From Patescibacteria group bacterium (GTDB lineage: Bacteria; Patescibacteriota; WWE3; UBA101185; UBA10185), in assembly GCA_042571515.1 (NCBI GenBank), contig JBHPHX010000003.1, positions 1 to 42,708 of the forward strand: a stretch of DNA of 42,708 nt, in the 5' to 3' direction. The position numbers and the translations under genes were made by a program. Shown piece after piece: positions 10,082 through 41,737 of the stretch; position 1 is the stretch's first letter; each line of letters begins with the position of its first letter. The notes under the pieces were generated by a model. It saw only the letters and a program-made list of their open reading frames with translations. It did no database searches and was not told the origin of the DNA.

Positions 10082-10696
10082 TTATCCAGTCTGGCAATCT
10101 CTATGCTTAGCAGCATAATATGGGCCATAATTTTCACACTCCCTTAATATAGTTTTTTTGCGAGGATGTCTTGATGGTATTTGCTTTGCAAATATTTTCA
10201 TTTGTGTTGGATGGGTTATATCGAGATAGAACATTACTTTGTCCTTGGTACCTACCCTCCTCAACGCTGGGTATATCAGTAAAGGTTCCATAATCTTCGC
10301 TATCTTAATAAGGTTCTCTCGTCTTTTTTGGTAAATCATGATTTCGTATGTGTCTTTCTTTGTCCACTTACGCTTTCTTATAGAACCATCTGTGTCAAAC
10401 ACCCCAGCCACAAACTCCTCTGGATGTTTTAGTTTCGGTAAATGTAACCAGTAAAAGTTTTTCTTAAACGGAACGAACATGTGGTCACAAGGGTTTTTTG
10501 CTAAACCTGCATATATTCTATGGCAAGTTTCTTTTCCTCGTCCCAAACGTGGTTCCAATGATTGCATTAACTTCATCAAAACATCCCTATAGCCATCCTC
10601 AGCAGTAGTAATTTTTATCCCATATTTGTTATATGGGGTTCCATCCCCTAGGTAAACCCCCAATAAATATTCGTAGGTCCTTCTATCCATAACCAC
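10082..10696 (-). CDS. LAGLIDADG-family homing endonuclease (double-motif, free-standing)
   Basis: 204 aa. Two LAGLIDADG-type motifs, YLLGVYLGDGT and FVAGVFDTDGSI, about 85 aa apart. GTG (10696) or ATG (10690) start with a TATAAT box 9 nt upstream. Confidence 0.85.
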   Translation of the reverse strand: MVMDRRTYEYLLGVYLGDGTPYNKYGIKITTAEDGYRDVLMKLMQSLEPRLGRGKETCHRIYAGLAKNPCDHMFVPFKKNFYWLHLPKLKHPEEFVAGVFDTDGSIRKRKWTKKDTYEIMIYQKRRENLIKIAKIMEPLLIYPALRRVGTKDKVMFYLDITHPTQMKIFAKQIPSRHPRKKTILRECENYGPYYAAKHRDCQTG

Positions 10697-11798: not shown

Positions 11799-11914
11799 TG
11801 ATGACCCCAGGGGGAAGAACGCGAAACTGCGTTTCGCTACCCTTTCTCTCGTTTCACTCGAAAAACGTAAGAACCCCCTGCTTCGCTAGAACTCTCACTT
11901 CCACTAAGGACATC
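11799..11914 (-). pseudogene. Truncated tRNA-Glu-like copy (D-arm to 3' end) with a ~56-nt GC-rich insert in the T-loop
   Basis: Minus strand reads GTCCTTAGTGGAAG...GGGGGTTC[ttacgtttttcgagtgaaacgagagaaagggtagcgaaacgcagtttcgcgttctt]CCCCCTGGGGTCATCA, against the real GGGGGTTCGATTCCCCCTGGGGTCACCA. No 5' acceptor strand is present. Confidence 0.7.
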
Positions 11915-11944
11915 AAAAAATATTGCTCACCACAAGGGCGAGCA
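11915..11944 (-). terminator. Terminator after tRNA-Glu
   Basis: Minus strand reads TGCTC-gcccttgtggt-GAGCA followed by ATATTTTTT, directly 3' of the tRNA. Confidence 0.55.
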
Positions 11945-11952
11945 CTATTTTC

Positions 11953-12027
11953 TGGTGACCCCAGGGGGAATCGAACCCCCGTTTACAGGATGAAAACCTG
12001 TTGTCCTAACCACTAGACGATGGGGCC
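11953..12027 (-). tRNA. tRNA-Glu (anticodon UUC), CCA encoded
   Basis: Manual cloverleaf: GGCCCCA TC GTCT AGTGGTTA GGAC A ACAGG TTTTCAT CCTGT AAAC GGGGG TTCGATT CCCCC TGGGGTC A CCA (75 nt). Confidence 0.9.
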
Positions 12028-12060
12028 CTACTACGCCGAGGCTTTGTAGGGCAAGCCAAG
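12028..12060 (+). repeat. Mini hairpin element abutting the tRNA-Glu 5' end
   Basis: CCCTAC-tacgccgaggcttt-GTAGGG-caagccaag. A near-identical element (TCCTAC-tacgccaaggcttc-GTAGGA-caag) is inserted in pseudo-tRNA-His copy 1 at 14032..14061. Confidence 0.75.
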
Positions 12061-12101: not shown

Positions 12102-13526
12102 GTGAATCTAATATTAAACCTGTACACATATCTTACAACTCTGCTTTTGGCATTGGCCCCGTTTGTTCCCAGCTATACAGAAGGAGTTACTGGCCAGCCC
12201 GAATCCTTTCTACCAAGCCAAGCCACCTCAAGAACAGACAGAACCATCTCTGAGCTCATGTACAGGGGGCTTTTTAAATATGATATTTATGGCACTTTGG
12301 TTCCAGACCTAGTTTCTACATGGAGTATTTCAGAAGACGGTATGGTTTATACAATCACAATTAAAGAAAATCAATATTGGTCAAATGGTAAAAAAATTAC
12401 TGCCGATGATGTAATTTACACTTCTTATAGTGTTTCTAACTTGGCTGGGGTTGGAACAGATAAGGTTGATGATCTTACAGTAAGATTTTCTCTTCCCAAT
12501 AAATACTCTCCATTTTTAGGTTTACTGACTGTTGGAATCATGCCAGCGGGGGAAGTAGAAAAAGGAAATCCTATATTTCCAACTTCTAGTGGTCCATTTA
12601 GAGTTGCTAGAGTAGAAAGAGAAGGGCCCTTGATAAGAGAGGTTGTGCTTGTTCACAATAACAGGCAGGAAAAGATAAAAAGGTTGTCCTTTAGATTTTA
12701 TGCCAATGAGAAGGAGCTTGTTACCGCGGCAAGACTTGGCGATATAAATGGGTTTTTAGCGGGAAAAGAACATCAAATTGAGGGTTTTTCGGAGTATAAA
12801 TTTCCAGTGCAGGGTGTTTACTATGCGTTACATTTTAATTTGAGGGAGGAAAAATTTCAGGATTTGGTTTTCCGCCAGAAGTTAGCCAAAGTGTTACCCT
12901 TGGATGAACTTACCTTTAATAAAGGTATTCCAGTTGAGGGAGCCATTAGCCGTAGCGCATTTACTGACGACTCAATTAATTATGATTATTACGACGAAAC
13001 AGTTTCAGATGTTTTAAGTGATACTACGGTAATAATTTCAGTGCCGGATATAAAGGAACACCTACATTTAGCAAATGAGATCAAAAGGTTTTGGGAGGGA
13101 AGTTTAGGGCTAGATGTTAGAATTCGCCAAGTGGATCCAGATGAGATTGTGGAGGACGTTATAAATAAACGTGATTTTGAGGTACTTTTGTTTGGACAAG
13201 AGGTTAGTAGAGATCCAGATAGATATGTAAATTGGCATTCTACTCAAATAGATCCCCCAGGGTTAAATATTAGTGGTTTTGAGCATGTTAGAAGTGATAG
13301 GGCTTTAGAGGAGGGTAGAAATGAGCCTGATCAAGAGGCGAGAATTTCCCACTATAATCAGTTTCAAAATGTGATTCACGAACAGGTTCCAGCAATTTTC
13401 CTATACCACCCATTTGCAACATATTATGTTTCGGATTTTTATGAGGGTATTGGTGAGAAGCACACATTTACGCTTACGGATAGATTTTTAGATTTTGATA
13501 ACTGGGAGAGAGTTAAAACTAATTAG
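12102..13526 (+). CDS. ABC-transporter family 5 (peptide/nickel type) substrate-binding protein, orphan
   Basis: 474 aa. Hydrophobic N-terminal signal/anchor. TWSISEDGMVYTITIKENQYWSNGKKITADDVIYTS matches the SBP_bac_5 signature region. GTG start 6 nt after a TAAAAT box. No permease or ATPase genes adjacent. Confidence 0.8.
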   Translation: MNLILNLYTYLTTLLLALAPFVPSYTEGVTGQPESFLPSQATSRTDRTISELMYRGLFKYDIYGTLVPDLVSTWSISEDGMVYTITIKENQYWSNGKKITADDVIYTSYSVSNLAGVGTDKVDDLTVRFSLPNKYSPFLGLLTVGIMPAGEVEKGNPIFPTSSGPFRVARVEREGPLIREVVLVHNNRQEKIKRLSFRFYANEKELVTAARLGDINGFLAGKEHQIEGFSEYKFPVQGVYYALHFNLREEKFQDLVFRQKLAKVLPLDELTFNKGIPVEGAISRSAFTDDSINYDYYDETVSDVLSDTTVIISVPDIKEHLHLANEIKRFWEGSLGLDVRIRQVDPDEIVEDVINKRDFEVLLFGQEVSRDPDRYVNWHSTQIDPPGLNISGFEHVRSDRALEEGRNEPDQEARISHYNQFQNVIHEQVPAIFLYHPFATYYVSDFYEGIGEKHTFTLTDRFLDFDNWERVKTN

Positions 13527-13851
13527 TTGTTTTAAAATCCACTTTACTTAGTTTCGTTAAATTAAATATTTTTATTATAAAGTTTTGAGCTATTTCGTAA
13601 TCTTTTATATTTGTTATTTCCATTAACTTGTTTGTAGCATATTCTAATTTTTGTACGCCTTTTTTTCTACCCGAAAATTTTTTTTCAGCTTCAAATATGA
13701 TTTTTATTGCCACTTTTACATTTTCTTTTAAATTTTTCTCATTTCTATTTTTTGTGAGCTTCCTCCATACTTGAGAAGTAATAAACCCAAGTATAAATAA
13801 TAGAACTGCTGCTACTAGTTCAAATAGTATGTTAGAGAAATAATTTTCCAT
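13519..13851 (-). CDS. Small single-TM protein, LL-H-type holin-like (tentative)
   Basis: 110 aa. One N-terminal TM helix, then a charged helical region (KVAIKIIFEAEKKFSGRKKGVQKLEYATNKLMEI). Recalled from memory as similar to the Holin_LLH family. Not verified. Confidence 0.45.
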   Translation of the reverse strand: MENYFSNILFELVAAVLLFILGFITSQVWRKLTKNRNEKNLKENVKVAIKIIFEAEKKFSGRKKGVQKLEYATNKLMEITNIKDYEIAQNFIIKIFNLTKLSKVDFKTTN

Positions 13852-13871
13852 ACCTAAATGATAGCTTAGTT

Positions 13872-13900
13872 TTGTTTAATTTTAAATATGTCTGTATAAT
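13872..13900 (+). promoter_or_regulatory. Candidate promoter of the tRNA-His array
   Basis: TTGTTT-17 nt-TATAAT (with TG immediately 5' of the -10 box), ending 14 nt before the first pseudo-copy. Confidence 0.45.
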
Positions 13901-13914
13901 GGCGATGTTGTTAT

Positions 13915-13995
13915 GGTGACTGTTCATCTCGCCTGCTGGTGCAGGTTTGCTGGCGCCACCGCTTTGCGGGGTCTAATGTTCAGGGGGTAAGGACC
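13915..13995 (+). pseudogene. Pseudo-tRNA-His 5' fragment 0 (degenerate) with a 52-nt GC-rich insert after position ~8
   Basis: GGTGACTGT[tcatctcgcctgctggtgcaggtttgctggcgccaccgctttgcggggtcta]ATGTTCAGGGGGTAAGGACC, against the real GGTGACCGTAGTTCAGTGGTAGAACGCC. Confidence 0.6.
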
Positions 13996-14018
13996 TTCGC
14001 TCAGCCAAATGTTTGTTT

Positions 14019-14069
14019 GGTGACCGTAGTTTCCTACTACGCCAAGGCTTCGTAGGACAAGCAGTGGTA
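14019..14069 (+). pseudogene. Pseudo-tRNA-His 5' fragment 1 (positions -1..21) with a clean 30-nt hairpin insertion
   Basis: GGTGACCGTAGTT[tcctactacgccaaggcttcgtaggacaag]CAGTGGTA. The flanking 21 nt are identical to the real gene. Preceded by the same 17-nt leader, cagccaaatgtttgttt, as the real tRNA. Confidence 0.8.
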
Positions 14070-14124
14070 CAATACCTAATTGAGAGGCTACCTTGGCTTG
14101 CCACACGTAGCTTTAGCGAAGTAT

Positions 14125-14207
14125 GGTGACCGTAGTTCAGTGGTAAGAACCTTCGCTTCGCGAAGAACCTTTCCTTTTGCTTCGCAAAACGTAGAACGCC
14201 GCTCTGT
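14125..14207 (+). pseudogene. Pseudo-tRNA-His 5' fragment 2 (positions -1..~35) with a 46-nt insert in the D-loop flanked by a TA duplication
   Basis: GGTGACCGTAGTTCAGTGGTA[agaaccttcgcttcgcgaagaacctttccttttgcttcgcaaaacg]TAGAACGCCGCTCTGT, then diverges inside the anticodon loop. Confidence 0.8.
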
Positions 14208-14241
14208 TTAGAGTTATAATCTAACAGCCAAATGTTTGTTT

Positions 14242-14317
14242 GGTGACCGTAGTTCAGTGGTAGAACGCCGCTCTGTGGAGGCGGATGTCGTGGGTTCGAG
14301 TCCCATCGGTCACCCCA
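14242..14317 (+). tRNA. tRNA-His (anticodon GUG) with encoded G-1 and CCA
   Basis: G(-1) GTGACCG TA GTTC AGTGGTA GAAC G CCGCT CTGTGGA GGCGG ATGTC GTGGG TTCGAGT CCCAT CGGTCAC C CCA. Confidence 0.9.
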
Positions 14318-14383
14318 TTTTTAGAGGTTGTTATAACAACAATTCCAACGACCAATTAATATTCAGCTTGACAGCGGGTAGGG

Positions 14384-14737
14384 TTATAAAGATTTGGTAA
14401 ACACATAAATTGGAGTAATAGTACTGTTGATAAGAAAACCAGTAGCCAGCCCTGTAAAGATAAAGGAACCTATGGCCATAAAGATTCCTAATTTGTACAT
14501 CAAGTCACTTTTGTCTTTCAGTATAAGATTAAAATTTGCTAAAGCTACAAATATATTCACAATACCCAAAAAGATTAGTATAGCGAGGTATGGATATGAA
14601 ATATTAACTTCCGTTTCAACATCTAAGTTCGCGTACATATTCTGCAATCTAGGCATTGTAATGAACAAGTAAAAGAGACCCAGGGTCAGTTGAATAATAC
14701 CAAAAAAGGAATTAATCAAACCAATAATCTTTTTCAT
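14384..14737 (-). CDS. Hypothetical membrane protein (about 117 aa, 4 TM helices)
   Basis: Hydrophobic ORF. Start moved to ATG 14737 (MKKIIGL) because a TATAAT box ends 6 nt upstream. The track start at 14755 is a TTG. Confidence 0.55.
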   Translation of the reverse strand: MKKIIGLINSFFGIIQLTLGLFYLFITMPRLQNMYANLDVETEVNISYPYLAILIFLGIVNIFVALANFNLILKDKSDLMYKLGIFMAIGSFIFTGLATGFLINSTITPIYVFTKSL

Positions 14738-41251: not shown

Positions 41252-41322
41252 GCCTCTGTCTGACTCGCGTCGCTCGTCAGCGATCTCGCTGCGCTCGATC
41301 TAGTGCTCAATGAATAGAGCAC
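41252..41322 (+). pseudogene. Pseudo-tRNA-Arg 5' fragment with a 43-nt GC-rich insert after position ~8
   Basis: GCCTCTGT[ctgactcgcgtcgctcgtcagcgatctcgctgcgctcgatcta]GTGCTCAATGAATAGAGCAC, against the real GCCTCCGTGGCTCAATGGATAGAGCAC. The same cat leader triplet precedes both. Confidence 0.7.
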
Positions 41323-41341: not shown

Positions 41342-41417
41342 GCCTCCGTGGCTCAATGGATAGAGCACTCGGCTTCGAACCGAGGGGTTGGGGGTTCGAG
41401 TCCCTCCGGAGGCGCCA
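41342..41417 (+). tRNA. tRNA-Arg (anticodon UCG), CCA encoded
   Basis: GCCTCCG TG GCTC AATGGATA GAGC A CTCGG CTTCGAA CCGAG GGGTT GGGGG TTCGAGT CCCTC CGGAGGC G CCA. Confidence 0.9.
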
Positions 41418-41457: not shown

Positions 41458-41520
41458 GGGGGAGTCTGCTTCGTTGCACTACGCAGCGTTTCGCTACGCG
41501 AAACTAATGCTCAGTGATTA
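41458..41520 (+). pseudogene. Pseudo-tRNA-Lys 5' fragment 1 with a 41-nt GC-rich insert
   Basis: GGGGGAGT[ctgcttcgttgcactacgcagcgtttcgctacgcgaaacta]ATGCTCAGTGATTA, against the real GGGGGAGTAGCTCAGTGGTAGAGC. The insert contains the perfect hairpin GTTTCGC-tac-GCGAAAC. Confidence 0.7.
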
Positions 41521-41565: not shown

Positions 41566-41646
41566 GGGGGAGTCTAGTTCGCTTTACTCACTAGCGACCT
41601 CACTTTGTTCGGTCTAATGCTCAGTGGTTGAGCAATCGGACCTTAA
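41566..41646 (+). pseudogene. Pseudo-tRNA-Lys 5' fragment 2 (to the anticodon loop) with a 43-nt insert
   Basis: GGGGGAGT[ctagttcgctttactcactagcgacctcactttgttcggtcta]ATGCTCAGTGGTTGAGCAATCGGACCTTAA, against the real ...GCTCAGTGGTAGAGCAATCGGCTCTTAA. Homology ends in the anticodon loop. Confidence 0.75.
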
Positions 41647-41662
41647 ATTAATTAAGAAACTA

Positions 41663-41737
41663 GGGGGAGTAGCTCAGTGGTAGAGCAATCGGCTCTTAAC
41701 CGATCGGTCGTGGGTTCGAATCCCACCTCCCTCACCA
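41663..41737 (+). tRNA. tRNA-Lys (anticodon CUU), CCA encoded
   Basis: GGGGGAG TA GCTC AGTGGTA GAGC A ATCGG CTCTTAA CCGAT CGGTC GTGGG TTCGAAT CCCAC CTCCCTC A CCA. Confidence 0.9.

Follow-up and report, generated by a model that had tools for sequence, protein, structure and literature searches.

The window analysed here, a whole contig of 42.7 kb (GC content 0.36) from a bacterium of the candidate division WWE3 (Patescibacteria, or candidate phyla radiation, CPR), carries four tRNA genes that were located with ARAGORN and Rfam: tRNA-Glu (11953-12027, reverse strand), tRNA-His (14243-14317), tRNA-Arg (41342-41417) and tRNA-Lys (41663-41737). The tRNA-His gene is preceded by three partial copies of its own 5' end, each broken by a different GC-rich, hairpin-forming insert, and this array of three units is the subject of the present analysis. 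Repeats and predicted folds of the array were determined, and GC content was compared between the inserts, their flanks and the whole window. For comparison with relatives around tRNA-Glu and tRNA-His, we used 77 WWE3 loci at the neighbouring gene for a substrate-binding protein (SBP), and motifs were counted in 475 kb of WWE3 sequence; individual loci are referred to by L numbers. The array and its gene are laid out as follows (nt, nucleotides).

13872-13900, forward strand: promoter-like sequence upstream of the array (TTGTTT at 13872-77, a 17-nt spacer, TATAAT at 13895-13900)
13915-14018, forward strand: unit 0, with a decayed 5' end, an insert, a D-arm and a leader (from sequence, repeats and folding)
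14019-14124, forward strand: unit 1, with a 5' end, the M1 hairpin, a D-region and the M2 loop
14125-14241, forward strand: unit 2, with two exact tRNA segments, an insert, a -10-like box and a leader
14242-14317, forward strand: intact tRNA-His(GTG) with encoded G-1 and CCA (14243-14317 in ARAGORN and Infernal, G-1 at 14242)

In unit 0, the decayed 5' end reads GGTGACTGT (13915-23, 8/9 matches to the 5' end of tRNA-His). The GC-rich insert follows nt 8 of the tRNA, measures 54 nt (13924-77), contains two hairpins and terminates in CTAAT; behind it come a degenerate D-arm (13978-14001) and a 17-nt leader (14002-18). Unit 1 starts with an exact copy of tRNA-His positions -1 to 12 (14019-31, 13/13), is interrupted by a clean 30-nt insert, the M1 hairpin (14032-14061), and resumes in register with CAGTGGTAcAA (14062-72), which corresponds to tRNA nt 13-23 (10/11 identical). 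It also holds CCTTGGCTTGCC at 14091-102 and the M2 loop GTAGCTTTAGCGAAG at 14107-21. The two tRNA segments of unit 2 are both exact (14125-14145, tRNA-His -1 to 20, 21/21; 14191-14207, tRNA-His 18-34, 17/17) and enclose a 45-nt insert (14146-90) with two GC-TTC-GC hairpins, the junction bases GTA being repeated on both sides. A -10-like TTATAAT (14214-20) and a second copy of the 17-nt leader (14225-41) then lead into the working gene. Leader and 5' end together form a perfect 30-nt repeat (14002-14031 and 14225-14254, 30/30 identical), and units 0 and 2 have the derived string TAAGAACCTTCGCT in common. The GC content of the inserts was 0.47-0.61 compared with 0.25-0.35 in the flanks, and every insert was predicted to fold into one or two hairpins.

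A previous sequence-only reading of this DNA had already described three tRNA-His 5' copies starting at 13915, 14019 and 14125 before an intact gene at 14242, the GC-rich hairpin-forming inserts and the doubling of the leader before copy 1 and the real gene, all of which are borne out by the repeats, ARAGORN, Infernal and fold prediction. Its finer points needed some revision. The insert of copy 1 (unit 1) is clean, as described, and the identity claimed on both sides of it is complete only on the upstream side; the exact segments of copy 2 stand, with an insert one nucleotide shorter than the 46 nt reported and a flanking repeat of GTA instead of TA; the insert of the decayed copy 0, rightly placed after nt 8, had been given as 52 nt.

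The presence of 17-30-nt repeats within 330 nt is far beyond chance. A collapsed or duplicated assembly appears unlikely since the units differ from one another. None of the three units was seen as a tRNA by ARAGORN or by the Rfam tRNA model; in 13700-14450, Infernal with this model gave no further tRNA-like match even at E<=10 and ARAGORN reported only 14243-14317. The predicted RNA fold of the whole array was no more stable than those of shuffled sequences (z -1.25).

The sequence-only reading had also placed a TTGTTT-17-TATAAT promoter upstream of the array. The sequence is there, and a consensus scan did not call it as a promoter, the -35 element matching at only 3/6 positions. As relatives have a TATAAT box at the corresponding position, immediately ahead of tRNA-His, this is probably the native tRNA-His promoter, now joined to the oldest displaced fragment. 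With the -10 box upstream, the tRNA downstream and no terminator in between, the whole array would probably be transcribed in the pre-tRNA leader and removed by RNase P. On the other side of the gene, a trailer hairpin, GGTTG(N)..CAACA followed by CCCTAA(t/c)G.TAAATTGAACC, was observed in the window (14318-14345) and at L017, L018, L043 and L048; this trailer, kept across distant WWE3 species, may be a terminator or a processing signal.

Partial copies with hairpin inserts were found at all four tRNAs of the contig. Those at the three other genes are the following.

12026-12057, forward strand: another copy of M1, matching 14033-14062 at 27/30 positions (found when the array was compared with the window by BLAST)
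11799-11915, reverse strand: degenerate tRNA-Glu copy, past tRNA-Glu and its terminator hairpin
41252-41322, forward strand: partial 5' copy of tRNA-Arg, upstream of the gene, with GCCTCTGT, a 44-nt two-hairpin insert and a D-arm
41458-41519 and 41566-41646, forward strand: two partial 5' copies of tRNA-Lys, upstream of the gene

The second M1 copy abuts the 5' end of tRNA-Glu and is antisense to it. In the degenerate tRNA-Glu copy the T-arm is broken by a 53-nt insert with two hairpins, and the copy ends in TTCCCCCTGGGGTCAtCA, the last 18 nt of the gene with one mismatch. Both tRNA-Lys copies have a two-hairpin insert of 43-45 nt after nt 8. Among the inserts located after nt 8, those of unit 0 and of the two tRNA-Lys copies have CTAAT at their end and that of the tRNA-Arg copy has CTAGT; at their start, CTnnnTCG is found at tRNA-Arg and tRNA-Lys and TCATCTCG in unit 0. 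Most of their hairpins have the same layout, namely an outer stem, GA, 2 bp, a three-base loop, 2 bp, GA(G) and the outer stem again, with the purine-rich strand opposite to the tRNA strand. The 42.7 kb contained five of these motif hairpins in addition to the two copies of M1, all of them beside tRNAs. A T was observed at position 6 in the displaced fragments 13915-13923 and 41252-41259, where the working genes have a C paired to G; this suggests either that these fragments may have retained an older state or that they underwent C-to-T decay.

The insert of unit 1 belongs to a family of 26-nt hairpins, N-CCTAC-TACGCCAAGGCTTC-GTAGG-N', in which GTAG/CTAC tetranucleotides occur. A search of metagenomes with the pattern CTACGCCNAGGCTTNGTAGG matched at least 120 stretches. 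The module was nearly invariant in at least 100 distinct contexts whose GC content ranged from 0.32 to 0.63: the free positions were A in 94/100 and C in 97/100, and the 5-bp stem was followed by a sixth pair that covaries (C-G 48, G-C 30, T-A 14) and at which pairing ends. Seven of the 100 contexts lay within 150 nt of a tRNA. M1 copies were often situated inside arrays of other GC-rich hairpins or at contig ends, and gene orientation around them was uninformative, 47/100 contexts being at locus edges. At L116, M1 comes after 14 nt that copy the 5' end of tRNA-Ser. At L154, M1 follows tRNA-Gly and is itself followed by an AT-rich stem, then by a GTAGCTTTAGCGAA hairpin and finally by 16 nt that repeat the 3' end of the tRNA; the GTAGCTTTAGCGAA hairpin is also present at 14107-21 of the window, and L154 thus shows the same M1...M2 design as unit 1.

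The covariance models of Rfam 15 gave no match to the array, the WWE3 elements or the M1 loci at E<=1 to 10, only tRNAs and thiamine pyrophosphate (TPP) riboswitches being detected. A literature search with the M1 and M2 sequences returned no match, and a keyword search for a description in Patescibacteria found nothing relevant. We considered whether the reverse complement of M1 could encode a tag of the type found in transfer-messenger RNA (tmRNA) (…PYEALA-stop-stop), and rejected this because the stem covaries and ARAGORN found no tmRNA. The possibility that the hairpin stems were made from inverted copies of the target holds for some of them (L154 and the second element family described below) and is not general. 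At two loci with a GC content of about 0.6 (L102 and L165), tandem units of ~125 nt with three hairpins each were observed right after the CCA of tRNA-Cys, tRNA-Thr and tRNA-Leu, their loops including GAGCNNNGCGAG and an antisense form of the 26-nt hairpin; hairpin arrays behind tRNAs are therefore also found outside Patescibacteria-like genomes.

The gene order tRNA-Glu (reverse), SBP (forward), tRNA-His (forward) is kept in the 77 WWE3 loci. In the relatives, tRNA-His begins 40-100 nt past the SBP stop, directly behind the TATAAT box, compared with 715 nt in the window. The flanks of tRNA-Arg and tRNA-Lys were clean in relatives whose flanking proteins are 58-74% identical; the tRNA-Arg copy was absent from L225, L228 and L229, and the tRNA-Lys copies were likewise absent from relatives. 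On this sequence comparison, the arrays are lineage-specific insertions. In L225, the closest relative for this comparison, GCCTCTGT is the 5' end of the real tRNA-Arg, with T at position 6, and thus matches the displaced fragment of the window and not its working gene. At L030 (tRNA-Glu) and L048 (tRNA-His), 12-13 nt copied from the 5' end directly adjoin the native upstream flank with its promoter; behind this copy come a hairpin insert and then the intact gene, and at L035 the conserved native tRNA-His trailer comes after the distal 3' repeat. The outer copy is therefore the displaced original end, and the inner copy is that of the working gene.

Matches of at least 10 nt between the tRNAs and their surroundings were more numerous on the same strand than on the opposite strand (73 vs 31), and all the long ones were on the same strand. 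A repeat of the last 13-21 nt of the tRNA, from the T-loop to CCA, was recovered at 14 tRNA-Glu loci and 4 tRNA-His loci, mostly 120-175 nt downstream of the gene (only 42 nt for tRNA-His of L063). In related genomes, 3' repeats of 18-21 nt at this distance of 120-175 nt are frequent, and repeats of the 5' end (12-14 nt) are sometimes present upstream of tRNAs. The distal tRNA-Glu repeat exists in at least seven sequence variants, yet it is identical to the tRNA of its own genome in 12/14 cases, the exceptions being the window copy, with one mismatch, and the L018 copy, shortened to 11 nt. L026, L028 and L030 have closely similar flanks and differ in the interior between tRNA-Glu and the repeat, a pattern that indicates turnover as far as these sequences tell. 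The whole 146-nt unit is in tandem at L030, and L018 also shows a tandem duplication of its unit. Hairpins of the GAGCGAAGCGAG type, M1-like and M2-like hairpins clustered around tRNAs, with 13/17 within 300 nt of a tRNA versus 18% of the sequence. The orientation of the hairpin loops is fixed: they are on the tRNA strand when downstream of the tRNA and on the opposite strand when upstream.

Some additional observations were made at these loci. In L001/L002 (closest relative), a pseudo 5' end, atatGGTGGTTGT, lies 41 nt upstream of tRNA-His and is followed by 28 nt (CTGGCTTGAAG...) and by the real gene, atatGGTGGTCGT; this may be the insertion after nt 8 in a small or degraded form. Behind tRNA-Leu(GAG) of L229 (8320-8375), a GAGCAAAGCGA-loop hairpin is followed by TGGCACCA, which is the 3' end of the neighbouring tRNA-Leu(CAG) and not that of the adjacent tRNA-Leu(GAG). 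A second element family was found 57-65 nt downstream of the tRNA at L015, L035 and L053 (tRNA-His) and at L028 (tRNA-Glu), the same family being therefore present behind two different tRNAs; it consists of an inverted copy of the local T-arm, GAATGCCGGA...GGCGGGGTCG...CGTGACCGA, with a covarying long-range stem and a direct 3' repeat at the end. We also considered the large insertions between the SBP gene and tRNA-His of other WWE3 genomes as possible integrated elements and rejected them, since the inserted genes are ordinary and no displaced tRNA-His fragments were present in them; matches to AATGCCGGA in L059, L035 and L004 were due to chance.

The interpretation that we favour, with what we judge to be an even chance of being correct, is that the array would have accumulated as successive scars of small mobile modules, devoid of genes and bearing hairpins, that entered tRNA genes of this lineage, the gene end being re-created at each entry. 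The sites of entry would be exposed parts of the tRNA gene, namely the position after nt 8, the junction between D-stem and D-loop, the D-loop itself, the anticodon loop or the T-loop. The gene would be kept alive by a terminal tRNA segment repeated on the gene side of the insert, this segment being either carried by the element, as in an integrase model, or duplicated at insertion, whereas the old gene end would be pushed outward and then decay. The array would have been built by repeated events and by unequal exchange between repeats, and the free pseudo-copies could have taken up more hairpin modules. The native promoter would have stayed with the oldest fragment, the array being then transcribed as a long structured 5' leader cut off by RNase P, and the array itself would have no function. 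Unequal exchange probably contributes, since the joint between unit 2 and the gene is what a simple tandem duplication of 70 nt would leave. M1 did not arise in place, since there is a second copy of it in the window and at least 100 contexts elsewhere.

Of the suggestions made in the sequence-only reading, two are supported in outline: that of a small hairpin element linked to tRNA sequence, by the dispersed M1 family and the recurrence of its design at other tRNAs, and that of scars from successive insertions into the 5' half, by the orthologous loci, which showed clean or shorter tRNA flanks in the relatives and insertions in the window. The reading would have fallen back on the decay of one local duplication if such fragments did not recur and the region was not transcribed; recurrence was found at all four tRNAs of the contig and in related as well as unrelated genomes.

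Several results nevertheless weigh against mobile modules. Pfam scans of 35 window ORFs (open reading frames), which correspond to ordinary chromosomal genes (glycosyltransferases, leucyl-tRNA synthetase, an ABC exporter and others), gave no match to a recombinase, transposase or reverse transcriptase; in particular, there was no tyrosine or serine recombinase gene in or beside an element and no gene for RAYT, the transposase of REP sequences. No such gene was found inside the elements, which are too short for protein coding. Neither 2.9 million viral contigs nor the plasmid and phage collections contained M1, so that no vector is known for it. Outside tRNAs, the direct repeats flanking M1 are only short and mostly internal (11/100 contexts, including two tRNA cases). 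The inserts do not have the terminal inverted repeats of a miniature inverted-repeat transposable element (MITE), and the GTA duplication is seen only at copy 2, with none at copy 1. Filled and empty sites were seen only between species. The conserved purine-rich loops sit on the strand running away from the tRNA on both sides, for which the model offers no explanation. Finally, the perfect matches of the tRNA-Glu repeats must be due to events that are recent or keep recurring, to homogenisation or to selection, the last of which would be a sign of function.

A narrower version, which we put forward only tentatively, is that gene-less mini-elements made of ~26-nt hairpin modules, forming a class not described before, would enter exposed tRNA loops and regenerate the gene by duplicating the exact mature terminal segment. 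If true, this would imply an insertion guided by tRNA structure or templated by tRNA fragments, and no enzyme is known for such a step; recognition would rest on the conserved purine-rich internal loops. One module is kept almost base for base across unrelated uncultivated bacteria. A guided process of this kind would suit the facts, because the repeats end at mature termini (including G-1), their inner ends lie in loops and the same element type occurs at four tRNAs.

Site-specific integration, which we consider rather unlikely, would be a specific form of the mobile-module explanation. Each unit would be an attachment-site-only mini-element, or the remnant of a larger element, inserted by a tyrosine integrase acting in trans; the element would carry a tRNA end together with a promoter or terminator, and the hairpins would be arm-type protein-binding sites. 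This would fit repeats that run from a tRNA loop exactly to the end of the mature gene, those on the 3' side starting in the T-loop, the usual integrase sublocation. Direct repeats of this sort are present at units 1 and 2, at L030, L048, L116 and L154 and, on the 3' side, at 14 tRNA-Glu loci. The distal repeat is preceded by an imperfect 5' strand of the T-stem, as expected of a right attachment site (attR), the proximal copy is accompanied by a terminator of its own (L035, L028) or by a separate -10 box (window 14214-20), and different elements occupy the same site among loci with closely similar flanks. However, no integrase was found in the window or beside any element, the elements measure only 45-170 nt, and M1 sits exactly at the junction, where a seamless join would be expected. 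The presence of one element type at tRNA-Ser, tRNA-His, tRNA-Glu and tRNA-Gly would also require a separate tRNA-specific lineage for each, and the pattern of the second element family gave only chance matches in viral contigs (18, all in GC-rich phages). The use of the 5' end is also atypical for known bacterial integrases.

Alternatively, the array could be a functional structured leader or trailer, acting in the regulation of tRNA maturation, as a decoy for processing enzymes or tRNA-targeting nucleases, or in the stabilisation of the transcript. The sequences make this improbable, despite the likely inclusion of the array in the precursor, downstream of a -10 box and without a terminator before the tRNA. 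The hairpin loops are conserved with covarying stems and the distal 3' repeat follows the tRNA of each genome, as function would predict, but close relatives live without arrays, the units are unlike in content and degree of decay, tRNA models do not recognise the pseudo-copies, and the region as a whole was no stabler than shuffles. On the 3' side, where many elements lie beyond strong terminators, the tRNA strand carries the purine-rich loops (tandem G-A, GUA/GAA internal loops); on the 5' side it is the antisense strand that carries the conserved loops. No match to an Rfam family was obtained. A tRNA mimic or decoy, the remaining suggestion of the sequence-only reading, gains no support from these results.

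A local tandem duplication of promoter, leader and 5' half by slippage or unequal exchange, followed by neutral decay with hairpins arising in place, is to our mind quite improbable as an account of the whole array. It accounts well for the joint between copy 2 and the gene, where tRNA nt 34 is joined to position -34, including the -10 box and the 17-nt leader, as in the product of a 70-nt duplication, and it agrees with the TAAGAACCTTCGCT string common to units 0 and 2 and with the tandem units of L030 and L018. It does not account for an M1 insert that belongs to a dispersed family, for the four independent pseudo-copies of three tRNAs that have an insert at the same place after nt 8 (ending in CTAAT in 3/4 and CTAGT in 1/4), or for hairpin loops that are common to genomes while their stems differ. 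Very improbable, finally, is an RNA-mediated origin, in which reverse transcription with template switching would link tRNA fragments or precursors to hairpin RNAs and the resulting complementary DNA would recombine into the tRNA gene, much as in the integration of the Neurospora retroplasmid mentioned below: the repeats do end at mature termini, including G-1 of tRNA-His and CCA, and their inner ends fall at nt 8-9, in the D-loop, at nt 35-37 and at nt 55-59, positions that may be linked to cutting sites of tRNA fragments and to modified bases stopping reverse transcriptases, but no reverse transcriptase was found in the window, the 17-nt leader is duplicated too although it is not part of the mature tRNA, and the CCA, being genome-encoded, does not discriminate.

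The sequence-only reading knew of no described system that would fit the array, which is too strong a statement in view of three analogues: integration-derived tRNA fragments, repetitive extragenic palindromic (REP) sequences with their bacterial interspersed mosaic elements (BIME), and mitochondrial GC clusters. Fragments of tRNA genes left by integrative elements can be mis-called as tRNAs (PMC9897764). As in the present case, their direct repeats correspond to a terminal tRNA segment running from a loop to the gene end, the gene is rebuilt with the displaced end left behind, and arrays form by repeated events. In contrast to them, the elements described here are only 45-170 nt long, without integrase or cargo; the array at tRNA-His uses the 5' end (nt 8, 12-14 and 20), and hairpin modules sit at the junctions. 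REP/BIME sequences (REPINs), which are mobilised by RAYT, are GC-rich imperfect palindromes of ~25-40 nt that are mosaic, extragenic and present in many copies. Our modules are likewise GC-rich palindromes in mosaic combinations outside genes, with two copies of M1 and five motif hairpins in the 42.7 kb, and M1 contains GTAG/CTAC. However, REP families are species-specific, whereas M1 is nearly identical across contigs with a GC content of 0.32-0.63; no RAYT was seen among the window ORFs, and the WWE3 modules are nearly confined to tRNA flanks and accompanied by duplications of tRNA ends.

In mitochondria, PMC4478555, which cites Yin et al. (1981), describes yeast GC42 clusters that merge and shuffle and Neurospora PstI palindromes that flank tRNA genes, and repetitive hairpin-forming elements were reported in sponges (PMC2800124). 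They have in common with the present case short GC-rich hairpins that invade an AT-rich compact genome, flank tRNA genes and form mosaics, with no transposase known. These are, however, organelle genomes with unrelated sequences, and partial tRNA duplications are not a feature in these descriptions. Another comparison concerns the Mauriceville/Varkud retroplasmid of Neurospora, in which tRNA sequence is copied into mobile DNA and recombination at a mitochondrial tRNA gene gives a duplicated segment; unlike here, where no reverse transcriptase was seen in the window, a plasmid-encoded one is needed there. The units also recall the split tRNA genes of Nanoarchaeum equitans, in which a 5' half is followed by GC-rich sequence. 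A split tRNA gene was rejected, the intact gene being present and the organism bacterial; when the array was compared by BLAST with the remainder of the window, only the second M1 copy was found and no separate 3' half with a complementary leader. What sets the present case apart from all these analogues is that, in bacteria of one lineage, mini-hairpin modules go together with exact duplications of the ends of tRNAs, that the 5' end is used and that one module is conserved across unrelated environmental genomes.

Patescibacteria have very small, gene-dense genomes that are thought to be poor in repetitive DNA. Nevertheless, all the tRNA genes of this contig, as well as many of those in relatives, are surrounded by duplicated gene ends and hairpin modules. 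If mobile, these modules would represent a new family of small elements with an unusual target, tRNA loops. The 26-nt hairpin is an unannotated, widely spread sequence that something holds constant. Scars of this type can lead to errors in tRNA annotation and to breaks in assemblies; by lengthening pre-tRNA leaders, they also matter for the maturation of tRNA-His, where G-1 must stay.

The SBP gene upstream of the array (12102-13526) had its top matches in WWE3 genomes, with at most 71% identity, and one small ORF lies between the two.

13519-13851, reverse strand: holin-like ORF encoding a 110-aa membrane protein (weak match to PF09682, 27 bits)

The stop of this ORF overlaps that of the SBP gene. 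It was the sole candidate gene for a prophage remnant, which we rejected, its homologues (53-56% identity) standing alone on chromosomes in two loci, one of them beside gyrA. A free-standing LAGLIDADG-like ORF was observed at 10082-10696 on the reverse strand (PF14528, E 1e-9), with no rRNA or intron detected close by; the region around it, from 8 to 13 kb, includes several ORFs without a family match and has a raised GC content (0.38-0.43).

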